Both the position numbers and the translations under genes were made by a program. DNA of 64,000 nucleotides from Phoronis australis. Lineage: Eukaryota > Animalia > Phoronida. The notes under the pieces are model-generated. The model did not search any database and was not told the origin of the DNA. It saw only the letters and a program-made list of their open reading frames with translations. Each line of letters begins with the position of its first letter. The stretch's first letter is position 1. Below, piece after piece: positions 34,142 through 63,029 of this stretch. The DNA lies in the NCBI GenBank assembly GCA_002633005.1, contig NMRA01000049.1, positions 511,189 through 575,188 on the forward strand, in the 5' to 3' direction.

Positions 34142-36879
34142 CTGAAAATAGAAAAAGAGAATTGCTTAAAGGTACAAGCACATCACAGCATGGTAAAATG
34201 GCATAACACTCACTCAATCATGGACTTATAACTAATTTTAGACTGGGGATTGCCGTCACGAACTCACCCAATGTCTCATTCTTCAAACAGAGGTACTGGG
34301 AAGTAGTGTGTTGCTCGGGACGGTAGTCCTCAGTTTGTTGTGTCTTTGTGGCCTTAATTTGTATACTTTTTAATTTCCATGTCATGTTTTTAGCTCAATT
34401 ATTAACTTATCAAGACCTGTATAGTTCGATAGCAGCCCTTCACTAACACAAACTTGATTGAAAACGCGACCATACTTCCTGTTGGACATCTTGATCTACA
34501 CCCACTCACACACTCTGCCAATGGACATTACAATCAAACAAGTTAAAATAGTAGCTCTCTATTTCGTGAGCACATGTCTCATCCAGGGGTGCTTGGTAGA
34601 ATGAACATTGTGGAAGTAAAATGAACATTGTGGAAGTAAAATGAACGGTGAAATAAACAGTGACAGCAGGTAGAATGGCGTACAAGTAGAAACCCACAAG
34701 CCTAACAGAACAGAGCCAGCGTGCGAAAAACACTTGTGAGCTGCTCATTCAGCACAAGTTTTTCACAAATGATCAATTGTGTATAGTACTTTATTTTAAT
34801 AATTTTAATAATACTGGTACACTTTAGTCATAAATCTCTCCTTGCATTTTAATTTTATCTTGCTATTTCTGACTTTTCCCACTTGCAAATCAGTGGATTC
34901 ACTAAAGAAGTTCCCCTCTCTTTTAAAAAGTTTAAATAAATAAACTAATAGTCTGACTCTGTTCTTATGAAAACCCCAAGTATTTTGAACTAACAGGAGT
35001 CCAAATTTGGACTGCAAAATAAGAACTCTTCAACTTGTCTAAAGTACAATTAACAGCTTTTTCCTAAAATTTCAAATATGCTCACTGTTACTTGCAGTCC
35101 TCTCACTACGAAAACTGCACCGAAATGAAGCCTACTCCACCATAAGTGTTTTTGCAACTGTGACAAAAATGCCTACTTTGTTAATTACGGACGCTTTTAA
35201 AATAGAAACACAATCCAATAAACATGCCACTAGTAATTTTCAACATTGACGTCCAAATAGGGTGAGACCGACGAAACCCCGAAGTGTACTGTGACGGGAC
35301 GTTCGTAACTTTACGCTTATTGTTATTCTTATTTAGTTGCAAATGTTCAGTTATTCTTATGCTAATGTCTTTGTTGCGTCTCACGTGGGCATGTGGGCGC
35401 GACTGTATGTGTCGGGCACTTCGCTAGCGACAGGCTTAGGAGAAGGGTGTTTCCTTCCTTTGCCTTCATGAAAATTGATCGTTACCATCTGCAATTGAAC
35501 TGAAACTATGCCTGATGAGATGAAATACACATGTTTGATGTTCAGTGGAGACTTGCTCTGTTACAGTACATAAGGCTTCCAAAAGGCGGATGGAGAGGGT
35601 GTAGGACCACCGATCTAGTGGTAGTGGATTCTGAACACAAGGAGTGTTGCTGAGGGCAAAATCCAGGTACTATGCTGTTGCTTAGATCCATAGCTAAGAG
35701 GCAGGCCTGTTCCAATCAATGTGCTCGACGACAAACAGAAACGTACAGAGGGTTATGAGATCACTCATCCATCTGCCAGACTTTCCGGGAGGAGGCAGCA
35801 CAGATGGGGACCTGTCTATGATTTGTTAGGGCTAAATACACTATGAAGTATCAGGGTGACCTGGACTATGTAAAGAACGTATTTACAATGAGATATCTAA
35901 ATACCTAATGGAAAAGTGAATTCTATCCCTTACATAATTACAACTTCACCCACTAGTGACTGTCACTTATCTAGAATATACCTAGTAGGCACTGTGCTGT
36001 GTCTCGTTGACCCAATACACTAGTCATGCACTTGAGGTGAAAAATCTTCACTAGTGGAATGGTTTTCACGGTGAATTCAATCTAGACGCCTTTCACTTGC
36101 GTGATTTTGCATGACCTTGTTTTTACACGGGTATCTAGCAAAAAATGAAACACACCCAGGCCCACACTCACTTTGAGAGTGAGGGTGAGCACTGATTCAA
36201 CTAGCAGCACCGGCTAACAACGTCTATGACTTAACCATTATCACAGTCTCAGCTGTTCCCAGCAGAGACAGTAGTCATCCTATAAGCCCTCCCTTATGCC
36301 AGAGGCTTTTTGGCAAATTATGCCTTATACTGAAAGAACCATTAAAGTCATGTTCCCACAAGAACTTTTTGGCTTTTGCGCATAGAGGGGTAATGATCAG
36401 ATACAACTGTAGTGGACCACGTTCCAGTGAATCTATGGCAGGGACATCACCCGGAAGTTACATCACATCCGTAGAGCAGCAGTTCGGAGTTGCCGCCGTG
36501 AAGACTGAGGGTTCAGACGTGCTATTGTTGTGTGTGTGTGACTTGGAATAGTCACTGTGTACATACGTGTGTATCTATATTAGCTTGCGTTCAGTAGTTT
36601 GTAGAGTTCAGAGGGGACTGAGGGAAGCTGAACTGAGATAAGCCGTTATAGTAGTTTTAGAAATACTGGCTTCGTACTTGGGACTCGAAAGAGACAAGAC
36701 GTGCCTAAAATCGCTCCAGACGCATCATCATATCTTGTTTTACTGTGTTCGGAACCAGTGTTTATTCCAGTTAGGTAAGCTGTCTTCTATTCACCTAATA
36801 TACCAGAATAACGTGGTAAGGGCGGCACACAACATTTTGGTGGTGGCGGTGGGATTCCACTCCCAGGGCACACAACACA

Positions 36880-36954
36880 ACATGCCCGAATTACGAGAAC
36901 CAGTTTTCTCCAGTGAATTACGGGCATCAAACTGGCTCTCAAAAACAGGCATGT
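36880..36954. repeat. Tiny hairpin element (GAGAACCAGTT core family)
   Basis: ACATGCC..GAGAACCAGTTT...AAACTGGCTCTC..GGCATGT; loop TGAATTACGGGCATC identical to the 1872 copy. Confidence 0.75.
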
Positions 36955-37431
36955 AGTATTCAACTGTTGCCCATAAGAGAGACAACTTAGCCTTAGGTAG
37001 GTCGGTGATGTCTTGAACTCGTATCCACTGGTAGTGGTACGAGCCGTGCAAAAATGGTCAGTTGCCAAATTAGGCAACTAAACAATGGATTAGACAATCA
37101 ATGGCCCCCTAAAGTGACCCTCTGTGCATAAAAGGTACAATGACCACCATCTCTAGCTGGCCCCACGCCCCAGTAAGACGGTGAGGCTCCGTCTTTACTG
37201 ATAACTGTGGCCACCTACACTTGTAAAGACTGTGGTCAAAGTAACAGCAATATGACATTGATGATTAATTAAGGCATAATTATCTGAAAATATTCCGGCA
37301 TATGGAAGGCCTGTGGAATGGCCGCCGTCCCAATTGCGGTCAGTTGAGACGGTGATCTATCTAGTATCTTCTTGCTACGATTACGAATACGATACGGATA
37401 TTACGATTACGTGTTCATTCATGGTATACCG

Positions 37432-38331
37432 TAGGCAATGACCATCGCCTCTGTTGGCCCGAACCAGAGGCGATGTAAAGGCTATAGGCGCTCTGTACGC
37501 CGGAAGCTTTTCGGCGAATTATGCCTCGCACCGACTAAACCATCAAAGTCACGTTGTTATAACTACCTTTTGCGCATAGACGAACACCTTAGGAGGTTGT
37601 CAATGAAAGTTCTTCCAACTCGAACAAATACTCCCGTTATGAAACTTTTTCTTCGAGCAGTCCCTATTTCAGTTCCCAAAATCGTGAAATCAAAATTTTC
37701 ATTTTTTTAACCAGGCCGAAGGTCAGAAGTTGCGGACCTACCGGCGAACTTTGAAAGCTGAAGTTCCCGCCCTTCGCGTACGTGCTGCCGGGAACCAGCC
37801 GTGCATATGCCGTGTTGTTAAACATTAAAATGTCAAATATGTGCACAAAGACTTTTAAATGTCATATCAACAGCATTTATTTTTATCAAATACAAACAAT
37901 AATTCATTGAAATACAATCAGTTTCAAGTAACGCCAATTAAAGACAAGTATAAGTGGTGGCATTTTGGAAACGAACATTTGACTGACAAGACCGCAATGG
38001 CTCACCTTTGGCCTATTTAAAAATTATTGAGGTTATGAAGTCACATCACCTAGCGAGCGCGGTAAAAGTTGGAGCGTGCGCAGTACAAAAATTTTGATTT
38101 CACGATTTTGGGAACTGAAATAGGGACTGATCGAAGAAAAAGTTTCATAATGGGAGTATTTGTTCGAGTTGGAAGGACTTAAACACATTGACAACCTCCT
38201 AAGGTGTTCCTCGGTGCGAGGCATAATTCGCCGAAAAGCTTCTGGCGTACAGAGCGCCTATAGCCTCTACATCGCCTCTGGTTCGGGCCAACAGAGGCGA
38301 TGGTCATTGACATTGCCTAGGAGTGGGACTA
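37432..38331. mobile_element. Foldback/Mutator-like non-autonomous element with long TIRs in RABL2 intron 1
   Basis: Arms about 37436-37699 and 38086-38309 are near-perfect inverted repeats (left arm has an extra block of about 45 nt). A 9-bp direct repeat GGTATACCG flanks it at 37423 and 38332. Confidence 0.85.
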
Positions 38332-38454
38332 GGTATACCGATGGCGATACTTCCAGTGATGAGTGAGTCACAAACGCAATCTTCAATCTCAGTCTCACCA
38401 ACAAGCAAAATTACAAAATCTCACACTTCTGACAAATGTATAAGAAATTATTAC

Positions 38455-38552
38455 TTTGACTTTCCCACAGCACTGTCTCCGAGGCATATTACTTTAACTT
38501 TGGTCTCACTGCCATCATCGGCTTCATAGTCGGGTTCTAAACTATCCGCCAT
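38455..38552 (-). CDS. RABL2: RABL2 coding exon 1
   Basis: aaaATGGCG start; encodes MADSLEPDYEADDGSETKVKVICLGDSAVGKS(K) with the RABL2-type P-loop CLGDSAVGKS; donor gtaata. Confidence 0.95.
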
Positions 38553-39081
38553 TTTCACCTGAAATATGTGACCTCGGAAGTAAAACCCATTCCAAAGGCA
38601 AATGTTTCAAAAATTTTCTCAAACTAATAATTTAGAAAATATATGATAAAACCTTTAAACGAATTGCACCTTTGAAAATATTTTTTAGCAAGTTTTTTCT
38701 TTAATTCTTAAAACTCAATTTTTATTACTTGCCATTTACTAACTTTTGCCTATGCTGCATTAACCTCTGATGAATTGAGGTCAGACTTGTCAAGGAGAAG
38801 AAGCTGGCGGGAACTAATTTTCAAGACTAATAATCCCGCATTATTTCCGGATTTATTTGTCCGAGATTTATATCATGGTTGTGTCTTGACAGCATCCACG
38901 ATAAATAGTTGAAGCGAAAGTTGAGAAGGTTGCACTTTGAACAGAAAAGATTTAATTGAATGAGTTACACCATTGAGGCTAGGGTGTACCCCTTGCTACT
39001 TGACTCTAACTAGTCCTAGTGGATTAAAATTTTGCGAATATAAACATTTGATTCGTGTCTTGAGGAAGATTCACTGAAGAC
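38553..39081. promoter_or_regulatory. Probable bidirectional promoter and 5' UTR region between RABL2 (-) and gene 3 (+)
   Basis: Divergent ATGs 530 nt apart. ETS-like CGGAAGT near 38575 and a YY1-like AAAATGGCGG over the RABL2 start codon. Confidence 0.55.
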
Positions 39082-39139
39082 ATGTCTGGACCAATTGGAT
39101 TCGAGTTACATGCACAACCTTCAAACAACAGCTCCATCG
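39082..39139 (+). CDS. Gene 3, putative alternative first exon A
   Basis: Encodes MSGPIGFELHAQPSNNSSI + G|gtaagt (consensus donor, phase 1); contains PIGF. Confidence 0.65.
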
Positions 39140-39617
39140 GTAAGTCTTTGTAAAAAGAAAGGATATATATCATTAAAAATTCTCAGTAGTAAAATTTTGG
39201 TACTGTCTATGCCATGCCATGCCCATGGATGATGAATGCAAGCTTTCAGCATGTTTCTGTGAAATGAAAACCGATTTAAAAAACACTACAAGGCTGGCAT
39301 CAGAACATTTTCAAACTCCTCTTTTAAAGATTGCTTGCACAAGGGTCACTATATGTATTTAAATTTTTCTTAAGTGTGAAATATAATTTTTGAAACGGAT
39401 ATTGATACTGCTATGCAATGGGAGTAAACTATTGGATGTATAGCCTACATTGAGTGGTATTAGTCACTCGCAGGTGTACGGTACAAGATTTTGTTTTTCA
39501 CTGAATAGGGAACATCAAACTGAGTGGTACCCATGTAACTGACTAGTTCCTATTGTGTAATGCTTTAAATTTTAACATTTTTTAAAACTTTATAATTGCA
39601 TGACTAGATCGAAATTC

Positions 39618-39760
39618 GGTAAAAGTGGAGTAAACTGGTCCCATTTGAAAATGGCTACCGAGAACCAGTTTTCACTCAGGAAGGGCAATATGCGTTATGT
39701 TGAGTGAAACTGGTTCCCGGTAGCCATTTTGAAGAGGGACCCATTTACTCCACTTTTACC
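39618..39760. repeat. 143-nt hairpin/MITE with GAGAACCAGTT core
   Basis: GGTAAAAGTGGAGTAAA...AAAATGGCTACCGAGAACCAGTTT pairs with AAACTGGTTCCCGGTAGCCATTTT...TTTACTCCACTTTTACC. Confidence 0.85.
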
Positions 39761-42700
39761 CAACATTCAGCCAAATACCTCAACAACTGCTTTCTCACGT
39801 AATAATTTGGGACGTAGGATTGCGACCATTTGGTAGAACTAACTGAAGTCATTGCCTGTAACCTCATGATTAAACAGGCTTAACACTCTGCTCCATGCTA
39901 CTATGGGTTTAGTGCCTTACTTGTAACTAACTAGAGGTTAGACAGTGTTGGTGGGCTTTTAGCTCTACTACCTAAAGGTTTCACTACACCACTCGGGTTG
40001 TGGGGTTGAATTTGCCTGTAGGCTGATACACAGCGGTAGCATTTACATGTGAAAAAATTTTGTGGTATTTGCTGAACGGTTATCTGTGATTGTTTACATG
40101 ATGATTTTCTGGCCATTACGGTTGAAGTTTACAACAAAACAAAACCGGATCTTCAACTGGTAAGAACCAAGGATATGAGTATTTATTACTCCCACTGAAA
40201 AACACACGGGTGGTCGCCACACCGGGCCAAAGCCCCTGATCCATCATACTGGTATGCAAAACGATTCAGATCCTTTGTACGTGAGTGTACACCACGCTAT
40301 CTTTCTTGGTTCCTGAGAGAATGCCGTGGATTTTGGCATCCTGTCGAAGACCGATTAAAACCTTGCAACTCCCCTCTGCCCACATTGCCGGAATAAAACA
40401 AAAACACTTCACGTTTTGTGCTTCAAAGCAATGACATGAAGTGTGCATGCATTTGGTTGAACCACGTTCTGTATCTGAAAGTTGTCCCAGTGGTTTGTTG
40501 CAGCTGTCACGTTTTGTTTGGTGTTTTACTCGGCTTTTGCCTAGTAAACTCTACAATTTTTAGCAGGTTATAAAGGGCTGATTAAAGTTGGTATTTTACT
40601 TGGTATATTGAAATGACAATCTAAAAAATCAGAATGGTAATTAAAAGGTCCATGTGTAAACAGGTCTTGTGTTATTCCAATAATATCATTTTAATATTAG
40701 TGATTTCGAAAAGAAAAAATACCAGTATTAATTGTGAGGTTAGTCAATGGTTGACTTTGATATTTTCAGGATTGCTGCTTCTTGTCACTTTTTCAATTCT
40801 TGCCAGTTAATTAAAGTATATTACAAATATGTCATTTGACCAGGTTTTCAGTATAATTAATTCAGCATTTTGTACATTTAATTTTAATAATAAAACTTTT
40901 ACTTTTTGTAAAATCTCCATCCATTGGCCTTGCGATGAAGTATTTTCTTCATCCGAATTCAGATCAGGAGGTGTGCGAACCCCCTGGTCAGTCACTTTTA
41001 CACTGCTGTAGTGAAGGAATCTCCCTTGTCCGACCACACAGGACTAAAGTTGCGGACAGTCAGAGGCTGCTCGGGTACCCTTGTCCTTTATGTATTTTGC
41101 TCTAGGCCTTTCTAGGCCTAACTCAACTGGGTGTTGTTCATAAATAAGAAATGTACCGGTTTGATGGCAGCTTTTCAGTAAATGGCTTCCAGATGCAGCA
41201 TTTTACACATTTAAGAAAATGAATTTTAAAAAGATTTTTCCCAAATTTTATTTGTCTACAGTAAATGGGCTTGCAGTGAAGCTGGTCTGTCATAGGCTGT
41301 TGAAGTTTTTAAGCTCCTTGATGCCCCTAGATCCGTGATTATGTAACACCTTGCTTAAAATTCAGTGCATGTGTTCAGATTTATGGGTATTGTCATCAGG
41401 GAGTGTCCATATGTCTTCATGAAGTTCTGTGCCCCAGGTTGTGCATAAACCAGTCCACAGCTGTTGTTGATATTGCTGAAAGGTATGTGTGTCAACTGTA
41501 GGAATGCAAAGGTTTTGGAATGGCGCAAATTTTTGCCCAGAAAACTCTGTTGCTGAAACGAAATTCTGTAGAACGGAAGTGTTAGCAGTAGGCATACTTT
41601 AGTGTTGTGAACCTTGAAGACATGCTGAAATGTGCAGTGTCACGAGGTGCTGATAGAGTATTTTGCGTGCAAATGTGCAATGCCACCTGAGATTTTAAAA
41701 CAGTGAATTTGTATTCGTTCTTTGAATTATTTGAAAGAAATTGCATTACGAGGTAATTTGTCTTTGCTCAATTTGCCCCTCTCTCGATGAACAGAATTTG
41801 AAGTTAAGTCCAACAGATATCTATTTTTGCAATGTCAAATGTTCAGGGTTCACATTGGTTTACTGGCAGCCGATGTTCTAAGCGTATCATGTATGTTATA
41901 CAAAACCACTTCCAAACTCATTAATGAGTAATCATTAAGTTTTACAAAACAGTGATTGTTATGAAATTGAAACCTCACCTATGTCGTTCTCCAGCAACCT
42001 GGGGTTAATTGAGGATTTCAACAATAGGGCATCCAAAATGTATTTCCCAATTTCTCAGGGAGTGCGACTACGTTTTTTATGGTTCAAAGTCTAATTCATG
42101 TTATAATGTGGTATGTTACTATGGAGATATGGGTCAGCATTGAGAGTTATTGTTACAGTTCTTACATCACAACTTTTTATTCTCCTTGGACAGACCACTG
42201 GGACCACCCCCTCCCCTCTGCCCCCTCAAGGCTGTTGGCAAATTAAAAGAGTTACTCATAATGGCTTGCTCGTGTACTTTACTTGGGCATCCGAATGCTC
42301 ACAGGGCGTCAAATGGTGGCCATGGCATTCTACCTAGCCTTGGGTGTCTAAATTTGTCCCTTTGGAGGCCCAACATATGAAAGCCTGCGACTGCTACGGC
42401 ACACATGTTATTTTGTACAGCACTTGAATTGATAGAGCCGATCATCTGTGTTTTGCTGAATAGTATTTTTTGTGTCATAAAAATTCAATGTGGTGTATTA
42501 ATCAATAATGCTTATCGAGCTTCTTCTCGGCTATACTAACATGTAGTAAACTAATACCTAACGGGCCTGCCAACATCCATAGTCAAATGCCCATTAACGG
42601 GGTTATAGGTATGATTCATACAACTTCAGATCAACACCTTTGCCAGAATGCCATTTACCTTCCTTGTTCAGTCATTTTGGATATTTAGCATTGAATAGGA

Positions 42701-44662
42701 CTGATATATAAGGGGCTGTAACGATATTTTTTATTTTGGTAATTCTTAAATGTTAAACTCAATTGAAATATTTCAGTGTTGTGAATAATTTTGGTAGAAA
42801 ATCAAGGTTGCTGATGGTCATGTATTGTCGGAGTGTTTGTTGCTCAAAGATTACCTGTTCATAGTGGGGAAACTGATTCTCATTGAACAATTCATAGAAC
42901 TGAATTGGAGATCATCACGGTATTTTACAGACCCTTTTGAGATTGTTTAAATTGCTCCAGGTTGTTATGACACTTCTGTTTGTCAAAGATTTTCTACTCC
43001 AGCATTGCCCAACTATCTTTATCTAGGTCACTGTGCATTCTTGTCATAGGATTCCTCCTACATACTCAAGCAACACACCCATCTGATATGAGCATCACTT
43101 GAGGTGTGTACTATACTGTTCCCTATTCAAATTTATTCTGTCCTGCCCCTTTCTCTGTCTCCAACTGCTATCCCCAGGACACTGTGGTTTGAGTTTACAC
43201 TACTGCCACACTTCCCAAGTCCACTGCCTTTGGAATTTTTATGGTTTCCAGACTGACCTCTTCTGTAGACTGTTTGAACTGACTATGGTGTTGGTCATTC
43301 TGATCTGTTGTGGGCAGTGTTCATTCTCATGAACATTCATCACAGTTGGTCTAGAGCAGATACATCATGAAAAGTTATTTTTGTAAAATCTCTGTAATTT
43401 TGGATGAAAACAATTGCAAAATTGGCATTTTTTCATTTCCAAATGGCTTGTCCACGATCAGGGTGATTTTTGGACACCAAATTCACCAAATTTTTTAAAA
43501 TTTGATGTAGGCGTACCAACGCATTATAAATTTGTAGCTTTGACTGTCCTGAACAGTTCGTGAACACTTGTTTTAAGCATTCAAACCGAATATTGTGTGA
43601 ATAATCAACTATTTAAGCGATACGGTAATATTAATGTATGGGCATCTACAGATGATACAAAGCAAGTATTTACTCAGATTTCTTGATCTCAAACAAGACA
43701 ATACCTTTTAATAAAGTCTTGGTATTTATTTTATTATACTGGTAATTGCAACATGAACTTTATACCATGGTTAAACATTGTTGCCATGGAGTGTCCTTGT
43801 TTAGTCTAAGGAGGCTACAAAATGTCTAGGGACACTACATTCATGGATGGTACTTACTTATTGTCAACTCCAGAGATATAGTTATCATTAATTGACTTGT
43901 GTGAATAAAGTGTATCCGGAAGCATATTCCATGAGATGAAACACTGACTGAGTTACAGCAACTGGTAGTTAACATGTTTATAGAGAGATCTAGGGACGCT
44001 ACACTTTTGGAATGGACTAAGTCTACATTTCATGTGTTCAAAATCCACATTTTAGAGTCAACGCTTAGGGTGTATTTCAATTATTCCATCTTTATATGTG
44101 ACAGTCACTATCAGAAAGCAAACTTTTAAGAGTTCCTAGGTCTCCACGTATTATTTTATTGTGGTATGAACTAAATAGAAACAAAGATAAATTGTAAAAT
44201 ATATAACGAAAAATATTGTTGATTCAGCGTGCAATATCTTTGGTTCCAGCCATCAGATTACAATTTGGTTTTGCGCAATAAAAATCTGCAAGAATTGAGC
44301 ATTTTAAAAGGTTTTCCTATGATGCTATATTTCTAAATGCATAATTATAATTGCTATCTTCCTAAAATGGACACGTATAACATCACAAAATGCAATGTTT
44401 CTGGTAACTTGTAGCGCTTTAAAATTTCTGAGGCCAATATAATTATCCCTTGGAAGAATTCATTGACAATAGTACAATACACGTATGTGGACATAAATAC
44501 ACAGAAACACCCCATAACCTGACTAATTGCAATTACCGGTATACCCTGATTGTGGACAAGCCGAGTTGAATGCCCAGTTTCTCAAAACGTTGTTCTATGG
44601 CAGGAATGGTATACAAGTTGAGACTGATAAGGTCTTTATTGTGTGATACTTTTATAAAACAG

Positions 44663-44735
44663 GAGGAAATAGTTCGGCCTGGCGGACTGAGTGCCTTCTG
44701 TTCACAAGGTCGTGGGTTCGAATCCTACTGGACAC
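44663..44735 (+). mobile_element. tRNA-derived SINE head or decayed tRNA-like sequence
   Basis: A-box-like TAGTTCGGCCTGG and a perfect B-box/T-arm GTGGGTTCGAATCCTAC; no convincing anticodon or acceptor stem. Confidence 0.5.
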
Positions 44736-44767
44736 ACTGCTAGACCTTTGAGTCTCTATCTCCTCAG

Positions 44768-46292
44768 CTCTGTCTTCATTTGTGTATCCCTCTTATGTGT
44801 TTTACATGCGTTCATTAATGAAATAAAAATGGTTTCTGGTGTTTGGTGCAACGGGCCTGACTGAGCGGCCTGTGCGCATGTGATACGACATGTATCAGAC
44901 CACCTGCACTATATTTTTATAAAAAAGAAAAAAAAAACAAATTTCAATTGTCTGCCATATGGTGTCCTGAAATGGCAAGATTTTATTGCATCAGTACCAT
45001 TTTATTTTTGAAAACTAACACCGGATGTTTGCAGACAGTCCAGTTTTCCTCTTTAGAGTTTCTTACGGTAGTTCCAAAACTTATAGCGAAGTTTTCTTTT
45101 AGTCGTTCTTTAGTTTTGTTTCGTATGTCTCTGAATTGCATTCTCAGTAGCACCAGTGACTGTATGCGCAGTTACCTGTCAGGTGTATTGGGATCCTCAG
45201 TAACACTCGTGTACAAAGTTATCTGTCAGGTGAGATTGATTCGCACTGGCTTTTGACTTCTTCACATCTTCAAGGTCTTCATACTCACAAGTTCTAACAA
45301 TTTTCTTTTGGATTAATGTTAGGGGTTGACCTCCACTGCATTGTAGCAAGTGTAGTATTTGGCCTCTGCCTATCATTGTTAGAAGCTAACTATTATTATA
45401 AATTTCTTTATTTAGAAATTGCCTAATATAATTGCCCCTGTAGATTACTATAAGCTAATTGTCTCTCATCCAACAAATCATGTGGGAGATAGAGTGAAAT
45501 ACATTGGCTAATTCTATGATAACCACTCCAGCNCTCTGTCTTCATTTGTGTATCCCTCTTATGTGTTTTACATGCGTTCATTAATGAAATAAAAATGGTT
45601 TCTGGTGTTTGGTGCAACAGGCCTGACTGAGCGGCCTGTGCGCATGTGATACGACATGTATCAGACCACCTACACTATATTTTTATAAAAAAGAAAAAAA
45701 ACAAATTTCAGTTGTCTGCCATATGGTGTCCTGAAATGGCAAGATTTTATTGCATCAGTACCATTTTATTTTTGAAAACTAACACCGGATGTTTGCAGAC
45801 AGTTCAGTTTTCCTCTTTAGAGTTTTTTACGGTAGTTCCAAAACTTATAATGAAATTTTCTTTTAGTCGTTCTTTAGTTTTGCTTCGTATGTCTCTGAAT
45901 TGCATTCTCAGTAGCACCAGTGACTGTATGCGCAGTTACCTGTCAGGTGTATTGGGATCCTCAGTAACACTCGTGAACAAAGTTATCTGTCAGGGGTGAT
46001 TGATTCGCACGGGCTTTTGGCTTCTTCACATCTTCAAGGTCTACATACTCACAAGTTCTCACAATTTTCTTTTGGATTAATGTCAGGGGTTGACCTCCAC
46101 TGCATTGTAGCAAGTGTAGTATTTGGCCTCTGCCTATCATTGTTAGAAGCTAACTATTATTCATTTCTTTATTTAGAAATTGCCTAATATAATTGCCCCG
46201 GTAGATTACAATAAGCTAATTGTCTCTCAACCAACAAATCATGTGGGAGATAGAGTGAAATACATTGGCTAATTCTATGATAACCACTCCAG
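44768..46292. repeat. About 760 bp direct duplication centred on N45533; probable uncollapsed haplotypes
   Basis: 44768-45532 is nearly identical to 45534-46292 and the junction is exactly the N. Confidence 0.9.
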
Positions 46293-46483
46293 CTATGATT
46301 AATTTCACGCTTATCAGGGCGAGGTTCTCCATTTTACCTGCACGTAGTGGCATTCCGTTCTGACTGATATCCACAGAGGTGAAGGGCTTACTGACTGGGA
46401 GATGCCTGTGGAGTACTTGTAGTCATTGTATGTTCATGAACCAAATTTATTAGATTGTTAAGGAGTCCTGGACAGCCTCAAAG

Positions 46484-46580
46484 ATGGATCGCAATGCTCA
46501 GGCTGGGAGTACAAGTGACATTCCTATTGGGTTTAACATTGCCTATGGACCAGTAATGAACAATCCCAGCTATGGCATTG
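46484..46580 (+). CDS. Gene 3, putative alternative first exon B
   Basis: aagATGG context; encodes MDRNAQAGSTSDIPIGFNIAYGPVMNNPSYGI + G|gtaagt (phase 1); contains PIGF and an NPSY also present in exon C. Confidence 0.68.
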
Positions 46581-49500
46581 GTAAGTATCAACACGGTGGG
46601 GGTACTCCCATAGAAGAAGTGCACAGAAAGTGACACTTAAGTGGGTGACTTTTTCACGACTAGTTTCTTTGTTAAAGGTATCATTTCTGGCAAAAGAAGA
46701 TTTGGAACTGACAAAGGCTCATTTTTTCAACTGTAAAGATCTGCAAAAAGGCTCTTAACGAATTTTTCGTAACTTGTAGCAAAATTTGTACTGATTTTGA
46801 CACGGGCCCTCTTCTGGTATTTGTCCAGACTTAATGAGTTTAAAACACAGCTGTTGAAGGATCTCCACAAAACTGAGGGTTAGGCTTATGGAATACGCCC
46901 CACCAAAGGGCAGTGTTCATGGAAAAAAACTGTGAAAGAGCTCCCTACAAATGGGTCCCTTTTCTAATCCACTCTCTAGTCTGAACGGGAGGAGAACTCT
47001 GGAATTTCCAGCAGCTCCCGGTCAAAATTATAATGCAGTACCCTCCTCCCAGTGTCAGGTATTACCTAAGGTGTGATAGTGGTCACCAGAGTAACAAGAC
47101 TATAAATGTGCTGCTTTTTCTATCATGCTTACACTGAAAGGGGAGTGCCTCCTAAATCACGCCTACGCTGTGAGTTGCCGTGGAACAACTAGACCATGAG
47201 CATCTTGTCCCTGTTCATCCGAGCATCGATTCTATACATCGCATCCACACTAAACATCGTACACCTTGCGACAAGTATAGCACAAATATGTATGTATAGG
47301 ACAGTGGAAGCGCAAGCGCAAGCGCACTGCTAGTAACTCCTGCCACCTACAACACTATGGCGTGCACTGTGACACGTGACTCTCAAACATGTTACTCCTC
47401 CTCTGTAAGGTGTGGTAAGCTTTCGCACACAAGATGCCTAGGCGCAGATAGTGCCAACGCCACTACTAAATCAACTTGTTCATGTAAAAATTCTTCAGTT
47501 TGGGAATTACAGCTCAACGTGACACAGACTGGTGAAATCACTCATTTACTACAAAAATAACTTTCCAAGAAAATTTACTTTGCTATTACCATGGTTTCTA
47601 TGGCGTAGCTATACTATTACCAAACAACATTTGGTAAAATTTCAAGCATTTGCAACAATGTGGTAAGCCTCTGCAAAAATAGCAATGTGGCGATTTTAGC
47701 AATTATTTTTGTCCTGTATTGAAGCGATTTTTAATGGTATAGCACTTAAACATGAGGTAACGTTAATTTGATGGTACAGAAAATAAAATGTCACTTGTCT
47801 ACCATATTGTGGTGAGATTTTCCATAATTGTTCTTTTGGATGCTGTTTCCAGGGGTGAATGGTTTGTTTGCATTCAGGAGGTCAAAAATCCACATTTATT
47901 CAGGGCAAGATTATCTTGTTGATTCACAATTAAACATGGATCTCAAGTGCCTAGGATGTGCCATCTGGCTAGTGGGAAGTCTTTAATCTTTGCATAAAAT
48001 TAGTTGCCTGGCAACATAAGAAATCAATTAAAGCCATATCGATGCTGGACACCTAGCTTGAGGACAAGTCGCATTTGGGAACTTGGCGAAAATCCCTGGT
48101 CACCAAGCAAAATCTGAGGTCACCAAGTCGGAGGTTACCAAACCTGATGTTGAAGTCATCGCCAAAAAAGGTCATGCTGTACTCCGTTCTCGGAAACTTG
48201 AGCATACCTCTTATATTTCTATCGTAAAAAATATGCAACATTTAATCTTTGACTTAATTCCTCCTGCCAGCGAAGATAGAACGCAGTCATTTGCAATACA
48301 CTGGAGGTGTATGTTTCACCGATCTTGCCCGATTTTTGTCAAAGTTTTCCGACTTCTGTCTACTTCCTGTTGTAATTTATGCGCATGTTTGATGTGTGCT
48401 GACTGCTGTGGTGGCAAACGTTACTGATTTCACAAAATAAACGGAACCATTATGAACCAAAGGTATTGATTCTAGGAAAACTTAGTAATTTAATGTTTGG
48501 ATTTCAACACAAACTTTGAAAAGAATTTCAGGGGAATTAGTGGCTGACTTTAATACTCGCAGTGACGACTTCATGGCGACTCCATGGCGACTTGGGATTT
48601 TTCCCTGGCAACCTGCAGGTTGCCAAATCGAGCACTGCACATAGACCACGGTCCTTAAAAATGTGTGTTTGTCTCGAGTTGGGTGTTCCCAATTTTGGAT
48701 AGTTTGAAAAGTAGGAGTTGATTTTATTGTCGCTGTGGTTAGATTTGGCTCTGCTTGCTACCTTGGCATGAAGTCCGGTTTAGAGTTAATGATCTAACAA
48801 TTCCTGGTGTAAATGTTTTCAAGCAAAATCTAATTTTGGATTAGAGGGCCTATAATGCCAGCAGGTGAGGAACACCTAACATGAGCATTTGCGAGTTGTC
48901 ATGGCACAAGTTATCAGGGCGTGAGTTGCTCCACTTCAGCAGTGGCATATACAAGATATTTTCGCAAACTGGATCAGGACGGGAGTCAAATATACAATGA
49001 AAGTGTACACGTGTTTGGATAAGCAATGGCGTACATCCAAAACAATGTGGTCACCTGCACAATGAAAGATGTCCCCTACCGCCTTGTCCCAGTTGGCAGA
49101 AATTTATCCTGTGTTACTTGCTGTACCTCTCAAACCAGTAACAAAAATAGCCAAGCAGTATTTTACACACATACTACTTGCATCTGTTCCGAGCAGCTGC
49201 TCTGTGTAAAATGCTGCTGTCAGACTTAACTTGTGGTTCCACTGCCCATAGTCTACCCAGTTGTGTATTATGCAATATATTGTAGTGCAACTGGGCTCAG
49301 CTATTCATGAGAGTACAGACATATACAAGTGAACTCCAGCTTAAAGTACATGCTGGTTTACTTACAGAGTTTGATTGTGCAAGACTTAAATTGGAATGAC
49401 TTACAGGGACAGGTGGGGATAGGTGGGACCTTACAGGTCTGCATATGCAGCCAAGGAGTATAAAACTATTGATTTTAACTCATTATATGTTTTTGAAAGT

Positions 49501-50074
49501 AGAAAGCTCGCAGAATGTTATTTGTGTTTTATTTACTAATCTGTTATTAATTATTGGGTCACGTGGTATATTGAAGGTATACTGATTGCTAAACAGTGGT
49601 ATCAGTTATCAATAGCATGCTCAATTTTTTTTATTTTATTTCAATTAGAAATTCAAGGTGAGGTCTCAAAAACACTGCTACAAGTTTCTAAAATATTATT
49701 TCGTTTTTCGTTTTTGTACTATTTTAAACTTTTTTCATGAAAATCACTAATAATCTCATGCAAAAGCAGAATTTAAAAATAATTCCTTATTTTGTTTTTG
49801 AAAACATTGCGTAAAGCACACTTTGTGAGATGTGATGTTTCGAAGTTAGCCAATTTATTTTAGTTCTGTCCGAACACCGACTTACCCTAGAACCTTGTGC
49901 TTTTCTGCAACTTACCCTACTAAGTGGAGCATCCACACACGCACGCATGCTCGCACGCATGCTTACACACTTATCCGATAACTAGCGCAAGACAAAGTTG
50001 TTGCTCTGTGCGCAACAGTGAAGATCTGATGTGAATACGGGGTACAAAAGCAGACTTGTCTCACCATTTGTATG

Positions 50075-50564
50075 CAGGCCTTTATACAGCGTACGTCCTG
50101 GGCGTCCATATGGATGCCCTAGCACTAATCTGGAGGCTCTGGCAAGGATGCCCAATGTATCATTTGGACGCCCACTGTCAATAGGAACCTTTCAAGTTTG
50201 GACTCTGTAATGAATACTAGGAAGACTCTGAAGGCTTACAGTGGGGGGCTATTTTTTCAAAGCAGGAAGAAATATACAATGTATATACAAAGTATATACA
50301 ATGTTGCTATGCTCACACTTGGTTGATAGCATTGTAAAAGTCTTGGTCTACATTTTTTTAGTAAAAATGCTCACTACAGAAGGCTGTTTTGTAAATTTGG
50401 ATGTAAAAACCTTGGTTTATGCATTGTTTTTGTAAAAAAATCTGTGTGTTTGGGGTGATTGCTGGGGATACGTGGGGGGTTTTCGCGTTGGAATCATGGA
50501 CGCCCTGGAATATTTGGAACCCCACTTTGGACACCGTATTTTCGAAATCCTGGATAAAGGCCTG
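50075..50564. mobile_element. hAT-like MITE
   Basis: TIR CAGGCCTTTATACAG versus reverse complement CAGGCCTTTATCCAG; 8-bp flanks TTTGTATG and TATGTATG (7/8). Confidence 0.65.
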
Positions 50565-51855
50565 TATGTATGTCTGTTGATTACTTCTGCCTTGCACCAA
50601 CCTTTTGGTTAGAAGTAAGGTGTCTCAAGTGGGGCAAGCTGGACTAGTTTTTAGCCTCGTCTACTCACAGCCTGCCCTATAACAACTTAACTAATAACTG
50701 GGGTAAGGCGGAAGTTGTCTTCTTTGTATATGCAACTGAAGCTGATAATTACTTCCGCCCTACACCACTTTTGCCACTTAAGTAGCATCCAGATAGCCTC
50801 CAAGCCTAGCAACAACTCTTCTAGTTGTAACTTGTTCCAGGGCAAGTCTGTGTGTGGACAACGCATTACACCGCGTAACCATTAAAATGACACTAGTTAA
50901 TGTGCAACAGCTGACAATGGGTTGAGACAGAGCAATGGGTGTTATCTTCTCACTGTGTTACTAGTTTCTGTATTTCTGAACAGAAGGTGGCAAGGCAGTA
51001 TCACCACCAGCCCTTTCTGTTGCGCATTCATCATAAAATTTATAATAGCTGGGCCCAGACATTGGGCAAACTGGCATGATGATGCAACCAAAGGTGTAAA
51101 TGGAATTTGACATGTAGCATGAATTATCACTTTGGTTTTAGATTGTTATCTTGTTCTATGTCAAGCTCCTTTAAATGCAAATTGGTATCAAACCTCTTGT
51201 GTAACACTGATAATAGACAACCAAATTTAAGTGCCATTCGCAGGCAGACTTGCCCTTGAACAAGTTACTCCTGGAACAAGTTGTTTCCAGGTTTGGAGGC
51301 TGTGTGTTTTAAACTAGTGTAACTTAACCCACTTGTGACAACTTACTCCACCTTAGGTGGGGTGACCAATGTTCTAGGGTAACTTGTGCCACTTCTAATC
51401 GCTATGTGGCTGCAAAACTGGGGCAAGGCAGAAGTAAGCACGCAGCGACATCTTACGCCTTGCCCTAGTTATTGGATATGTGTGGGTGTGTGGGTGTGGG
51501 TGCATAAGCCAAACATAGGAATTGACCCAGTAGAGTATTTGCGCTATATCGGTTTTGAATCTGCGTATATTGCAAAATATTGCCCCACTCCTTGGATGGG
51601 GAAGTGTAGGACTACGCAAACAACCAGATGGTTTCCAACCTCTAATTTGTGATGTATTCAGAAGCAGTTCAATTTAGCAGCATGCTTATCTCTTGGGACT
51701 TATCTTCTAGAGGCATTCCATGGTAACTGCAGCATTTGGGCTCAATGTCATTAGACATTTATAATCAGTTTCTACATGGAATTGCAAGGCCATTGTCTCC
51801 AGGTGTAGGATCGAGAATTGGATTGTGTACATCCTCATCTATGTTTAAGTGCCGT

Positions 51856-51905
51856 CCACGCACACGCACACACACACACACACACGCACACACACACACA
51901 CACAC
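51856..51905. repeat. (CA)n microsatellite, imperfect
   Basis: Read directly. Confidence 0.95.
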
Positions 51906-53096
51906 TTAACCTTAAACAAGTTACTCAGGAACTGGTTGTCTCTTGGTTAAGGCTGCCTGGATGTTTTTTTTTTCATAAAAGACCAGTGGCAATAAATTAT
52001 TGCTTAATACTATTTCAAGTTTTGTACCACATAAACCATAAAAAATATTTTGAAATATTGTTGCATGCTGGCAACAATGTTTGAAGCACTTGAAAAATAA
52101 AAAGGGCAATTTTGGCAATTATTTTTCAAGGCTTGGAATTAAATTTCCTCTTTAAGAAATGTCCTCTTTTTTGTTTCAATTTCCTCTTATTTGATTTCCA
52201 GTTTCCTCTTTTATTATCTCTTTTTTATCATTACTTTTACTTTATTCATGCAAAAAGATATTTCACTTAAATTTTACATCACAAAAATATTTGTATCACG
52301 CAAGCCTATTTATTTGTTGAATGATACATCACCTGAAAAATTTTTCTCTTTTTGTCATTGGTCATTTCAAGCCCTGTTTTTTTACAATAGCGGTGAGTAA
52401 AAACTGCTGTTGACTTTGGATTACCGTCAATTTCCAATTGAATGTAGACATGCTTCCTTTGTTGTACTCTATTCCATGGCTAATGAGAGTACTGATAAAG
52501 CCAATATCTGTCATTATGTTCTGGTTTGAACGAGCCCCTATGGGATTTCAAGTGCATTCAAACATTCTGAATCCTGTTATTGGGTGCTGGTAAAATCAAG
52601 AAAAATGATTACCAAGTTCATTGATGGGCTTCTGACGTTGTAAATCCCACTGTTTCTGAAATTATAGTCAGTTATTGTCAGTTGGTACCAGAATGTGTAA
52701 TTTTATGTACATCCTAAATTCTTGAAGTTTTTATGTTTACCTTTGAGAGTATGTTTGCTGAACTTTTACTCATTTACTCATTATATGTGCAACTATAACT
52801 GCCCAGTTGCATTTAGATGTGTAATGGAACTAGAGCAGTTGATCGAGAGCAACTTGCTCTACGTGTACGTCTTCCGCGGTATCAATTTGCTCTGTGCCAG
52901 TCATGTTTACACACACTCTTACGCTGGATCATCTGTTCCTCGTTAGTTGCTCCATGACAATTGTCTCCCATGTAAACGCTACTATTTTGTGTCTTAAATT
53001 GGTGAGATTTTATCTTAGTTTCTGTAGGCCACTGCCTTTTGGCTAAAGTGCTGTCCTCACACAAGCTTACCTTAGTGAGTATTGTCCAGACGTTAA

Positions 53097-53768
53097 ACTA
53101 GCACAACTTACCCCAGTGGTGACAACTTATTCCACATTATTGAGGTGGGGTAACTTGTTCTGGGGGTAACCTGCACCACTTGTAATCGCTATTTGGTTGC
53201 CAAAGTGGGGTAGGGGTAGTACCGGGATTTTCCGTAGATAAGCCCATGGGCTTGTATTCGGAAAATGAAAAATTTCAGATGTTTTAGTAACACCAAATAA
53301 ACGCCCGGGAATTTATTCGGAAAAGGGGGATGTTTAAACGGAAAGTCACAGGTTTCTTGACTTTGACACTTAAAATGTGTTTTGAAATTCTATGTTAATG
53401 CAGTAGTTCGTTATCACTGTGTTCATTTTTGTAAATGATAGATGCTACACAAAACTGAACTTGTGACTAAAAGTTGGCTTTTAAGAGGAAATTTTCCAAA
53501 TAAACACCCCAGTCTATCTGGACACTTGACACCTCAAGTTGTTACACCAAGTAAAAGCCCATGGAGGTTTCATTGGAGTGGGCTTATCTACGGAAAACCC
53601 TGGTAATCATCAGCTACGTTTGCATTTATACAAACAGTTTTCTTTTGCGCCGCCATTCTCTCATTAGGTGTTCATTGTCACTCACAGAGCGACAACTTCC
53701 GCCTTGCCCTAGTTATCGGACTTATGTGTGTGGACGCTTCACTTAAAAGTGGGGTAAGTTGCACTAGT
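53097..53768. mobile_element. TIR repeat (ACTAGTGCAACTTACCCCA ends) hosting the nested MITE; related copies near 49905-50010 (inverted), 50625-50840 and 51313-51485
   Basis: ACTAGCACAACTTACCCCA ... TGGGGTAAGTTGCACTAGT inverted ends; internal sequence aligns by eye with the copy at 51313. Confidence 0.7.
53222..53603. mobile_element. MITE with 25-bp TIRs and TA target duplication, nested in another repeat
   Basis: CCGGGATTTTCCGTAGATAAGCCCA versus reverse complement CCAGGGTTTTCCGTAGATAAGCCCA; TA on both sides. Confidence 0.88.
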
Positions 53769-54394
53769 GGCCGGACTTAACAATAGGCATGCTTCTCTAT
53801 CTGAGATGATCTTGTGTATTAGTGGGTGTTGTCTATCAATATAACCAGGTCGTTGCTAGGCTGATATCAGAAGGTTGGAAGGCTTGGTCTTAGGTTGATG
53901 CAATAAATTAGCCAGGTCAATCAAGAGGTTTTTTACTAGATTTTACTCAAATATGTTTGGCAGGACGTGATTTTTTACTGGTTAATACATAAGAGCGCAC
54001 TTATGTCTAGGTTGTATATCAAAGATATTTCAGTCTACATCTCGGGTAGTTGTTTCCTTATTTTCCCATGTTATGGCACTGTTAACACATAGTCAGGGAT
54101 GTTCCAAGTTTATGGACTGAAATGTCTAGTACCTTATTTTTAGGCCATTTCTGCATACTCCCATATGTAAGATATTCCCAGGATGTATCGTATACTTTGT
54201 GAGTGACAATTTTATAAATAATTCAGGTGAAAATGAAATGGGACATATCACAAGAATATTAAAAGTATGATTGCAAAATGGACAAATATGTATCTTGATC
54301 GACATAACGATGAAATCTCACCAATTCGAGACGCAGCAAGGCGTTTGCGTGAAATTTTATCTTTTCATTTTTTCCACAACATGAATAGTTTTCT

Positions 54395-54540
54395 GTGTTC
54401 AAGTTGAGTACCACGGCTATCGCCGAGGGAATAGTTTGGAAAAGTGTCGTCATCCTTGATAATGCTAGAAGCCCTTGAAAAATGAAAAAGTGCAAATTTA
54501 GCAATTATTTTTGTCCGAAACTGGTTAGATTTTACGGAAA
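54395..54540 (+). repeat. Old interspersed repeat; diverged copies near 1130-1245, 52012-52130, 59830-59895, 63755-63900, and inverted near 34040 and 60960
   Basis: Recurrent AAAAAGTGCAA..TT.GCAAT.ATTTTTGTCC.AAA.TGGTGAGATTTTA motif. Confidence 0.7.
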
Positions 54541-56908
54541 TCCATTAATGTTCAAAAGAACTCAATATTGCGCTTGTTTATTTTTACTAAATTTGGCTTG
54601 GTACCAAAATCTAAAATGTCTTCATCAATTTTGTGTTGGATGGCTCAGTGAAGTGGGGTTCTGGAGGGAGTTGTCTTGAAGCATGGTCACAAGTAACTGG
54701 AGGGCACCTATTGTAAAAATTGGTGTATTTCATGGTGCTTGAGTGCCATGAATTCTCAAATCAGTCCTTAAATTGTTATTTTGATTTTGATAAATTGTCT
54801 AATAATTGGATTTATTGTCTGTTGGCCTAATTTTTACTGGTGATATTTTTGGCATTTTTGTAAAATTTTCTGTTACAGACCAGGTGTTTTGTCTAGTCAC
54901 ACTCACAGTTAAACAGTAGGTGAGAGACTGAATTCTCAAGAATGATTAGTAAGTTCAACATGTCCACTTGGTCAATTAAACTGTAGTGAGGCCATAATGT
55001 TCAATCCAGTCAAGTTTGTGGTGTGTCACCCCATTGCAGGCTGTCATATGCTGGCTGCACTAGCTGTGATGTTCTGTGAAATCTAATGGCTATCACTGCT
55101 TGTTGAATTCATGTTGCAATGCATACACTCCAGGAGTATTGATTAGTCAGACTGACTCTGGCAGTTGTGCAACACTGGGGCAGTCAAAGCAAACAATGGA
55201 ATGTGATTTATGTTTTGTTATTGCTGAAGAAATATCTTATGTGTTGTTAGTTTTGTTATCTACACATCATGCTGAAAACATTCATGAGAAAGATAGTGGT
55301 CTAAGTTGCAAAAAATAGCCCAGCTCAGTGTGTCCTGTGGTAAATGCACTTTGTCTTGTCCGAAATGTTTTCCCCAAACTAGACATTTGCAAAATCAGCG
55401 GTGAAGAAAGTAGTGTCATTGGTCCATTGGACATAGACAAAGTAGATCTCATGTGTAGTCACAGCTTGTTACAAATTTTTACCAAAAGATTTGGAAATAA
55501 TGCCTGATAACTAAATGGTTTTCATAGTTAGCGGCATAATCATTTTCCAATATGACGACAACATGTTGAAAATTGGTGGGAGACTAGATGATGACAGAGT
55601 ATGTTTTGTGTAAACGTGCAGCGCCACCTACAGTTTCTATGTTAATTGGATAGAGGTTTTGAAACAGTGTAATTTCATAGCGTTTTTAAAAATTCTTTGC
55701 TCTTACTATGTCATGAAATCACCATTGTTTTGGAGTGAGCGTGAGCTTCAAATGATTCAGGTAAAGTAAAAAACTTTTGCTGAATGTTCTTGAATGAAGC
55801 AATTCGTGTTTCTTCTTCGGAAACGGAATTTGAAATTGGATCGAACAGAAGTTATTTTTGTACCTTTGCAATGCCGAGGAGTTGTATGTTGTCTTAAGGG
55901 ACTGTTTTGAAATATTAGACATGCTATTGATTCAAAGTTCTTTCTTTCATAAAAAAATATTTAGACTAAAACTGTAGACTTGACAGGCTTATTGTGAAGC
56001 ACGATGCTTGTGTGGTATGTGTTTTCATGAACTTTGACATCTGGCCTTTAATCTTTCATCTTTGACCTGAGTGAAAATGCTCCCACAGGTAATCACTGTT
56101 TACTCAAACATAACCAAAAATCACAGGGGAGACCATTAGACCTTTGGTGTGTTTTTAAGTGTGACCTTATAATAGGTTTATTTTTAGGCAATAGACAGAA
56201 AATCTCAGAAAGCTGCATTTATGTGTTTAGTATCACCTGTTGATGTGTTTTATGCATTTAGCTAATATCTGCATTGCTGTATTTGGAATTATCAAACTTT
56301 CCCACAGCCTCTCCCTGCGGTATGCTGTTCAGGAATTGTGTTCTGTCATAGGTGTGGACCTGATGCATTCATGTGTAAACTTAATCTGAAGTTATGCTGT
56401 CTGTGTGCTGGGACACTCCACCTAGTTATATTGTTTGTGGACAACCTGGTTATAGTTCACCTTTATTCATTTCCATTCAACTTGTATGACTGGTTGACAA
56501 GAGCTACTGGGAGTTTGGTTTCACTTCCTGGATGTGTGAACCCAGGTGTTCTGCCTGTGCAACTTTCTCTGGGAAATCCAGATTTCTTGTGCTGTTTGTC
56601 AACTGAGTGATACCAGTGTACCCGGAGTATTACTGTTTGCTGTCTGTCCCGCCTAGGACCCTCTGTTTCTCCAAGGCTAAGTGAACAGGATTTGACATCC
56701 ATGGAGGCTTGAATTATGCAATCCACCTTTAAGTGTCACTGGTGACCCTGCAGTTGGATTGTGCAAGAGGTTTAATATCAGACAATACCTGTACCTCTGT
56801 GTCCTGTAAACCTCAGCAATTACCTGTAGCAGAGGAGCGCTCTTGCTGGGTTGAACTTGTTGGATTTTTCTTTTAACTTTGATTGGAGTATCAAGACTGT
56901 GAATCACC

Positions 56909-57269
56909 ATGTCAGGTCATGAAATGAAAGAGATCGTCGTTGTCGATGATACTACTAAGGGGACTGTCATCAAACTTGGTGGTGATCACGATGACCCTTC
57001 AGGACCTGTTATCACCAGTCATCCTATATCAAAAACTAAAAGTGGGCCACCAACTTTTACCCCACCCCCTCCCCCAAAAGACGCGCCACCCCCTCTAGAG
57101 GAAGATGTGAAAGTTAACGGGGATGTTCACCCGAAACCTGTGACAGTCGAGGATGTGCATCTGAAAAACAATTACCCTCCCACAGTCAATGGGTTGGCTC
57201 CGATAGGGTTCGAAGGTCAAGACAACCCATCCTATGTCATAGAAGAAAATCCTCCGCTCGCTCCCATTG
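56909..57269 (+). CDS. Gene 3, putative alternative first exon C (proline-rich N-terminus)
   Basis: caccATG context; 120 codons MSGHEMKEIVVV...PPPPPK...LAPIGFEGQDNPSYVIEENPPLAPI + G|gttggt (phase 1). Confidence 0.8.
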
Positions 57270-57589
57270 GTTGGTATAATTGTTGTTGCAATGCATTGGG
57301 CACTGTTTTAATGATGGGAGTAACAGTGTTTTCACCAGGCTTTTTGAGCACGGCGCCTTTCCACAGGAGTCCGCACTCGTATTTTGATGCCTCCTCGCTT
57401 AAATATCGACTACCGTGTTCAAACTGTGAGCCGTGTTCATTGTTTGATAGTCACATTAGAATTGTAATGGCAGTATTGGCGGAAGTTTCACTGTAGTGCT
57501 CACTGCCACAAAAGTTTTCCAGTTTAAAGCTTCTGTTTGTAGACATGATTAAAAATTATTAAACTTTTTTACCTGTTTTTTCATTGAAG

Positions 57590-57724
57590 GGTTTGAAGGT
57601 GTTACTTCTGTGCCCTCCTCAGAACCGCTGTACCCCAGGTTGGATGGGCCTGGATCAAACGCGACCCCTGCGGAAGTAGACATGACTTCTCTGTCTGACG
57701 TCAATCCGACGGCTTCAGAAGCTG
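57590..57724 (+). CDS. Gene 3 shared second exon
   Basis: gttttttcattgaag|GG TTT GAA...; encodes (G)FEGVTSVPSSEPLYPRLDGPGSNATPAEVDMTSLSDVNPTASEA; donor G|gtaagt; 135 nt, phase 1-1. Confidence 0.8.
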
Positions 57725-58664: not shown

Positions 58665-58745
58665 CAAAACATCCGGTGGACTCCAAATTTAGAAATGCAG
58701 CGTACGATAGCACTGGAGACTCCATTAATTCCAGTGCTGGGCCCG
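58665..58745 (+). CDS. Gene 3 candidate internal exon
   Basis: tttcataag|CA AAA...; open frame (A)KHPVDSKFRNAAYDSTGDSINSSAGP; donor G|gtaagt; 81 nt, phase 1-1. Confidence 0.6.
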
Positions 58746-62966: not shown

Positions 62967-63029
62967 GTTTCGGCGCGTCTCATAAGGAGACCGAGGGTGT
63001 GGCTCTGCTTGGTGTCAAGAAAAGATCAG
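62967..63029 (+). CDS. Gene 3 candidate internal exon
   Basis: ggtttgtag|GT TTC...; open frame (G)FGASHKETEGVALLGVKKRS; weaker donor G|gtttaa; 63 nt, phase 1-1; GC-richer than its flanks. Confidence 0.45.

Follow-up and report, generated by a model that had tools for sequence, protein, structure and literature searches.

A stretch of 64,000 nucleotides (nt) from Phoronis australis (contig NMRA01000049.1, positions 511,189 to 575,188; hereafter the window, numbered from its first letter) contains the 5' end of a gene that, judged from its sequence matches, is very likely an invertebrate anoctamin (TMEM16, ANO1-7 type), a calcium-activated channel or scramblase whose body would lie beyond base 64000. 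Three likely alternative first exons of this gene (A, B and C) each encode a short motif of the type PIGFE, and each completes a second copy when spliced to a common exon (D). Related motifs recur in the N-terminal tails of anoctamins of other animals, and very probably PIGFE is a selected binding motif. We found no description of this ancient short tail motif; the anoctamin family is known, as is the alternative-first-exon layout, which is ordinary there.

The coding part of exon A, the likely first exon, lies at 39082..39139 (+) (58 nt, 19 codons plus 1 nt), with an internal PIGFE at 39091 and the donor GTAAGT. Exon B, a likely alternative first exon, has its coding part at 46484..46580 (+) (97 nt, 32 codons plus 1 nt) and uses the same donor sequence; its internal copy, PIGFN at 46523, is the most divergent of the three. 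The coding part of exon C, likewise a likely alternative first exon, is longer and proline-rich (56909..57269 (+), 361 nt, 120 codons plus 1 nt), with PIGFE at 57200 and the donor GTTGGT. An in-frame stop precedes the ATG by 3-11 codons in exons A, B and C alike, and all three end in phase 1 with an Ile codon plus G. Exon D, common to all three (57590..57724 (+), 135 nt, phase 1-1), starts GG TTT GAA and thereby completes IGFEG over the junction: the joins read SIGFEG from A, GIGFEG from B and PIGFEG from C. Exon D also contains a LYPxL motif, exons B and C contain NPSY, and exon A contains NNSS. An earlier note on this DNA, made from its letters, had reported the coordinates, frames and phase-1 donors of the three first exons, their internal PIGF copies and the three joins, along with NPSY, NNSS, LYPxL and an ExxxLL in a candidate later exon, and all of these are present in the sequence as it had described them, the ExxxLL in the exon from 62967.

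Read in all six frames, the window contains four PIGF, one each in exons A, B and C and one on the minus strand. In 30 Markov simulations the mean count was 0.47, and one of the 30 also gave four. When the residues of each exon were shuffled, PIGF arose with p values of 0.0014, 0.0014 and 0.0020, which are to be taken as post hoc. Because the synonymous codons of the three internal copies differ, and because the longest DNA match between the exons is 11-22 nt, the likeness of exons A, B and C in PIGF lies at the protein level. The core, a hydrophobic residue or Pro followed by Gly and by Phe or Trp, is present in all six motif copies of this gene; the 34 copies counted in relatives (below) all have it because the search was so defined.

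The three joins are found in RNA, in data that comprise three runs of one study with about one-fifth of each run used. The junction A>D (39139>57590) was crossed by 8, 10 and 6 reads in the three runs, for a total of 24 at a likeness of 90, among the 15 joints listed of 60. At a likeness of 97, B>D (46580>57590) was crossed by 0, 1 and 5 reads (6 in total) and C>D (57269>57590) by 4, 1 and 9 (14 in total). All three joints are GT-AG and on a single strand, so that the splicing foreseen by the earlier note is borne out at each junction. Because no joint into exon B or C is among the joints listed (all 12 at likeness 97, 15 of 60 at 90, with 71 loose ends outside the listing), and because sense reads and read variants (56505-56900) reach at least 400 nt upstream of the exon C ATG, exons B and C fit as first exons, a fit short of proof. 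A, B and C are likely to be alternative first exons served by three promoters. A further run of contigs, X4, possibly RNA, had zero depth over the exons; all four runs were selected by their species label. The junction counts vary among runs (chi-square p 0.02, with A and B/C counted at different likeness thresholds), and because of those differing thresholds and the small numbers we draw no conclusion about tissues. Reads carried variants in ten codons of exons B to E, of which seven were silent and the other three lay in exon C; PIGF and IGFE were untouched. At 57239-57240, in exon C, two neighboring bases of the window are contradicted by 16 of 16 reads from the three runs, which give Gly in place of Ile directly behind NPSYV.

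To place the motif among other animals we examined the anoctamin tails of 22 hand-picked representatives, one per genus or unnamed lineage. The pattern [ILV]GF is present in the N-terminal tails of 18 of the 22, as the earlier note had expected of IGF in relatives, with 34 copies against a shuffle mean of 1.1 (maximum 7 in 2000). Glu or Asp follows the Phe (position +1) in 32 of the 34 copies, Ile stands at -2 in 30, and Pro stands at -3 in 24. The core of the motif that the earlier note wrote as (P)IGF is therefore retained, and on the sequences compared it is better written (A/P)PIGFE, the acidic residue after Phe being conserved. Carriers include the sponge Corticium, the annelids Owenia and Lamellibrachia, bivalves, gastropods and Branchiostoma; the four that lack it are Babylonia, in which another isoform has the motif, two very short tails, and one long-branch beetle protein. 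Two N-termini of Branchiostoma are unlike each other as far as a Leu or Val, after which, from GFEG, their sequences coincide; one partial model from Owenia has GFEG as its first residues. This break fits the same intron position as in the present gene, as judged on protein models and not on DNA; mollusc motifs are internal to exons and differently ordered. The conservation of the tail motif from sponge to amphioxus, together with the same break point before GFEG, argues that the PIGFE motif is ancient and selected.

Other elements of the tail are more variable. A motif of the form [LMIY]YPx[LIVM] is found in 9 of the 22 tails against 0.14 expected, with a pattern that was widened after the sequences were viewed. 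NxxY/F also occurs in 9 of the 22, at scattered positions and counted without a control, and NPSY, which keeps no fixed position, finds no support as a conserved element. With respect to copy number, 110 members of the relatives' cluster were listed, and 106 of these had a readable tail. Among the 106 isoform models, 76 carry at least two copies, 22 carry one and 8 carry none, a range of 0 to 3 with free spacing. The earlier note had held that every isoform keeps a tandem pair. This is true of all three starts here and does not hold for all isoforms of the relatives; the sequences indicate that the pair is the common state and not a family rule, and that what is notable in this gene is that all three starts give an internal copy. 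By comparison, the second start of Branchiostoma has the junction copy only, whereas all three first exons here carry internal and junction copies, and several mollusc isoforms have one motif copy or none.

Two optional cassettes follow exon D. Exon E (58665..58745 (+), 81 nt, phase 1-1) has an NxxY motif and is joined by 27 reads of D>E and 5 of E>F. Exon F (62967..63029 (+)), the start of which comes from the reads and the end of which is predicted from the frame with a weak donor, starts with Gly-Phe, contains ExxxLL and is entered by 7 reads of D>F in addition to the 5 of E>F. The Gly-Phe of exon F is in phase 1, such that E>F gives PGF and D>F gives AGF, a possible third and weaker motif copy. 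Fourteen reads of one run pass from exon D into sequence absent from the window, and the loose read end behind exon D resembles, by eye, a Mytilus cassette with VELxTG. The intron between E and F holds a short ATG-started frame with LPEY at 61853-61948 (+), which no joint supports as an exon. Transcribed repeats lie in introns at 47500-54900 and 61098-61133 and attract most of the aligned reads, which come from other genome sites; 44861-45256 and 45631-45999 are near-identical tandem copies.

The earlier note had guessed at a membrane protein and stated that the family could not be named. The guess is well served by the anoctamin assignment, and the family can now be named through tail matches. 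The anoctamin lead was picked from synteny before any anoctamin tail was examined. It came from a scan of metagenomes with the RABL2-like exon, and one anoctamin exon of a locus found in that scan (L021) was used as a query: there were 808 matches among 841 candidates, and among the 120 matches listed 39 were at least 700 residues long. Exon D alone aligns to the tails of Branchiostoma (z 7.1) and Owenia (z 6.0), with 0 of 300 shuffles as good in each case, and exon F matches a Littorina anoctamin cassette with GVALLG (z 5.8, 0 of 300 shuffles). A profile of 19 foreign tails ranked exons C, A and D first to third, and B eighth, of 18,515 six-frame pieces from the window and the 78 loci of the scan. 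Scores with a motif matrix were 27.4 for C and 25.0 for A, with 12.1 for the next piece and less than 10, under the cut-off, for B. In sum, proteins with both anoctamin domains (PF04547, PF16178) have tails to which A, C, D and F show likeness, exon B matches weakly, and exon E had zero matches among the 22 relatives' tails.

The relatives themselves group with ANO1-7 and not with ANO8/10, in that their group profile scores mouse ANO6 at 1037 bits, ANO1 at 1001 and ANO10 at 226. In a quick tree the 29 rows sort by animal group, and the L021 anoctamin falls among them. The best structural relatives of the invertebrate group are the vertebrate TMEM16A/ANO1, TMEM16B/ANO2 and TMEM16F/ANO6 (PDB 5nl2, 6p46). 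The match to mouse ANO6 and ANO1 begins after the tail, and a counterpart of the motif region was not detected there, the vertebrate tails not having been read directly. In the databases the closest counterparts are automatic gene models called "anoctamin-4-like", which resemble the present gene in having PIGFE-type N-terminal motifs, a LYP motif and many alternative N-terminal exons; these include models from Branchiostoma (XP_078664179.1, XP_078664187.1), Owenia fusiformis (CAH1799994.1), Mytilus coruscus (CAC5402857.1), Littorina saxatilis (XP_070190140.1) and Corticium candelabrum (XP_062511484.1).

Direct searches with exons C and D brought up no relative. Exon C against longer proteins gave 748 candidates with none at E<=10, exon D gave 4 candidates and no match, and exon C in metagenome contigs gave 594 pattern matches of which none was confirmed; two ESM Atlas searches and Pfam found no relative of exons C and D. 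The lone phmmer match of exon D (P0001) was a bacterial repeat protein with SpaA-type domains, the score of which was summed over seven repeats, and it was rejected. The N-termini of calpain, annexin, scramblase (PLSCR) and type II protease were also considered and were dropped after the anoctamin tails matched.

The order of genes in the window is a SHANK-like gene at 1-20384 (+), a RABL2-like gene at 28439-38552 (-), and the likely anoctamin from 39082 (+). The SHANK-like gene encodes a SAM domain, and its best PDB matches are SHANK2 and SHANK3; it has a very large last exon, a proline-rich open frame of 1203 codons at 16773-20384 (+) that ends in the SAM domain, nearest SHANK2/3. The neighboring GTPase, which we take to be RABL2 from likeness of motifs, has its first coding exon at 38454..38552 (-), head-to-head with exon A, and further exons down to about 28440, including one at 32773-32985 with a Pfam Roc/Ras match. 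The two ATGs are 530 nt apart, and the bin at 38300-38963 is covered by reads of both directions; 38552-39082 is likely a bidirectional promoter shared by the RABL2-like gene and exon A.

The scan for RABL2 exons, in which 25 of 64 parts were covered, yielded 78 loci, many of them short or non-animal. An anoctamin lies directly 5' of RABL2 in two of these (L021 and L037), in the same direction as RABL2, and the RABL2 exons of L021 are 77-82% identical to four RABL2-like exons of the window. Neighbors at other loci, which we name by eye, are presumably a SAND-domain/DEAF1-type gene (L003 and L012, on the 5' side), septin (L024 and L052), and eIF5A with a Y-box protein (L013). In the human genome, ANO1 lies near SHANK2. 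In vertebrates, ACR is flanked by SHANK3 and RABL2B (PMC13762310). Because SHANK3 and RABL2B adjoin in vertebrates and an anoctamin adjoins RABL2 in L021 and L037, the order SHANK-RABL2-anoctamin looks like an old animal gene cluster. One inversion must be assumed, since the orientation of the anoctamin to RABL2 differs between those two loci and the window.

An AlphaFold2 model of the Mytilus relative, from a 39-sequence alignment, had a mean predicted local distance difference test score (pLDDT) of 71.6, with residues 1-90 at 25-31. The motifs are thus predicted to sit in a disordered cytosolic tail, and the LYPxL of exon D, judged by the tail of this relative, falls in the predicted disordered region as well. 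Short conserved motifs in a tail predicted to be disordered are most simply read as docking sites. As to what might dock there, two known systems offer comparisons. The type-2 motif bound by ALG-2 resembles PIGFE in that a large side chain comes after a hydrophobic-Gly-Phe core and the setting is proline-rich and disordered (PMC4346919), and PIGFE may work like this motif without being a member of it. LYPXnL is the motif bound by the V domain of ALIX, as in syntenin, EIAV p9 and PAR1, and ALIX, ALG-2 and ESCRT-III cooperate in calcium-triggered shedding and wound repair (PMC5037681). The single LYPxL of exon D, and the similar motif in nine of the relatives' tails, are like LYPXnL, although the copy here is a single one and the last position in relatives is often Val, Ile or Met.

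From this comparison we propose that the tail recruits partners, most likely an ALG-2-type calcium adaptor through PIGFE together with ALIX through LYPxL, a proposal to which we give somewhat less than an even chance. Its parts differ in strength: that exon D LYPxL binds the ALIX V domain we regard as evenly poised, and that PIGFE binds a penta-EF-hand protein such as ALG-2 we put forward tentatively, with the balance tilted against it. Under this proposal, a rise in calcium would not only open the channel or scramblase but also gather ALG-2, ALIX and ESCRT-III on its tail, and in this way vesicles would be shed, wounds sealed or the channel removed. Each of the three promoters would supply its own PIGFE copy, with the second completed across an ancient splice junction; promoter choice would set the length of the tail and the spacing of the motifs (16, 18 or 21 residues between the two Phe). 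Sorting signals would come from the optional exons E and F.

Several observations weigh against these readings and have to be set beside the alternatives. With respect to the gene itself, no anoctamin domain or core exon was found in the 64,000-nt window, nor is exon D tied to one by any read or contig. The profile E-values are not significant alone (0.17 for C, 0.67 for A, 7.6 for D and 38 for B). The anoctamins of L021 and L037 are codirectional with RABL2, whereas here the two genes are head-to-head, and a PIGF exon lies 5' of RABL2 in 0 of the 78 loci, the others showing other neighbors. That the gene encodes another membrane protein, which gained the same motifs independently, would suit the body lying outside the window, the direct searches with exons C and D that gave no relative, and the difference in orientation; yet it would leave to coincidence four separate tail matches (the first-exon PIGFE, GFEG and then LYP at the same break, GVALLG, and VELxTG) as well as the place beside RABL2, and we give it very little credence. 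The motifs could instead be neutral leftovers of old exon duplications with no binding role. Duplication has indeed shaped the tail, to judge from the Gly-Phe with which exons D and F both open in phase 1 and from the D-like units arrayed in tandem in Lamellibrachia, but the copies differ at synonymous sites and have no common flanking DNA, and the motif is kept from sponge to amphioxus within otherwise unalignable sequence, so that to us this explanation is hardly credible.

Concerning the partner, the human ALG-2 type-2 motif needs a Pro four residues before the Phe, and the P3A change abolished binding (PMC4346919). Pro at -4 is found in 0 of the 6 copies here and is absent from 26 of the 34 in relatives, where the conserved residues are Pro at -3 and the acidic residue at +1; a hydrophobic residue at -5 is found in two of the six copies here, and the full type-2 motif in only 6 of the relatives' 34. 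The Sec31 type-2 motif is moreover described in that paper as found in higher vertebrates only. The LYPx[LIVM]-like motif, even as widened post hoc, is absent from 13 of the 22 tails, and 30 of the 106 listed isoform models carry one copy of the PIGFE-type motif or none. These points leave room for PIGFE as a real docking motif of the same anoctamin for some other trafficking or scaffold protein, such as a coat or cargo adaptor, with LYPxL binding ALIX or not. The conserved Pro -3 and Glu +1 are not the positions that matter most for human ALG-2 (PMC4346919), the optional exons contain ExxxLL and NxxY, and acidic dileucine-like motifs occur in 5 of the 22 relatives' tails (counted without a control); nothing in the analysis points to such a partner, however, and a proline-rich motif context beside LYPxL is the pairing expected of the ALG-2/ALIX route. 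We hold this to be a serious possibility that falls short of even and is nearly as probable as the ALG-2/ALIX reading. We think it improbable that PIGFE binds within the channel itself, to the cytosolic domain of its own or of the partner subunit, and so tunes gating or dimer assembly. N-terminal splice segments do alter the properties of vertebrate TMEM16 proteins (PMC8835819), and in the quick tree the motif follows one orthologous group across animals. Against self-docking, the AlphaFold2 Mytilus monomer leaves residues 1-90 unplaced, a weak point given the size of the alignment, and a copy number of 0 to 3 with free spacing is easier to reconcile with an external partner than with a single fixed site. 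When the Mytilus tail (1-70) and body (92-910) were modeled as a complex, the score was 0.00 in each of two runs, with controls that were not folded, and this speaks neither for nor against self-docking.

Alternative promoters and N-terminal cassette exons have been described for TMEM16A, B and F (PMC8835819). A family-wide study of anoctamin evolution treats vertebrate sites and leaves out several N-terminal stretches, and no such motif is named in the part of it available (PMC2974728). We found no paper on a PIGFE or IGF motif in anoctamin tails, and no functional study of the invertebrate anoctamin-4-like proteins, in a search outside which most subscription journals and supplements lay.

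To our knowledge, TMEM16 structures lack the cytosolic tails, which have been treated as unconserved. A putative binding site in such a tail is marked here by a motif of five residues that persists from sponge to amphioxus, in as many as three copies. If its partner is ALG-2/ALIX, the tail would tie a calcium-activated scramblase physically and directly to ESCRT-driven shedding, and would be a candidate for the membrane anchor of ALG-2 at wounds, which is named as an open question in PMC5037681. On a broader and rather doubtful view, the ancestral animal anoctamin would have had its own ESCRT-recruiting tail, by which one calcium signal coupled scrambling to shedding or repair, and PIGFE would add a new class to the ligands of penta-EF-hand proteins. 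If the partner is another protein, PIGFE would still be an undescribed ancient trafficking motif.

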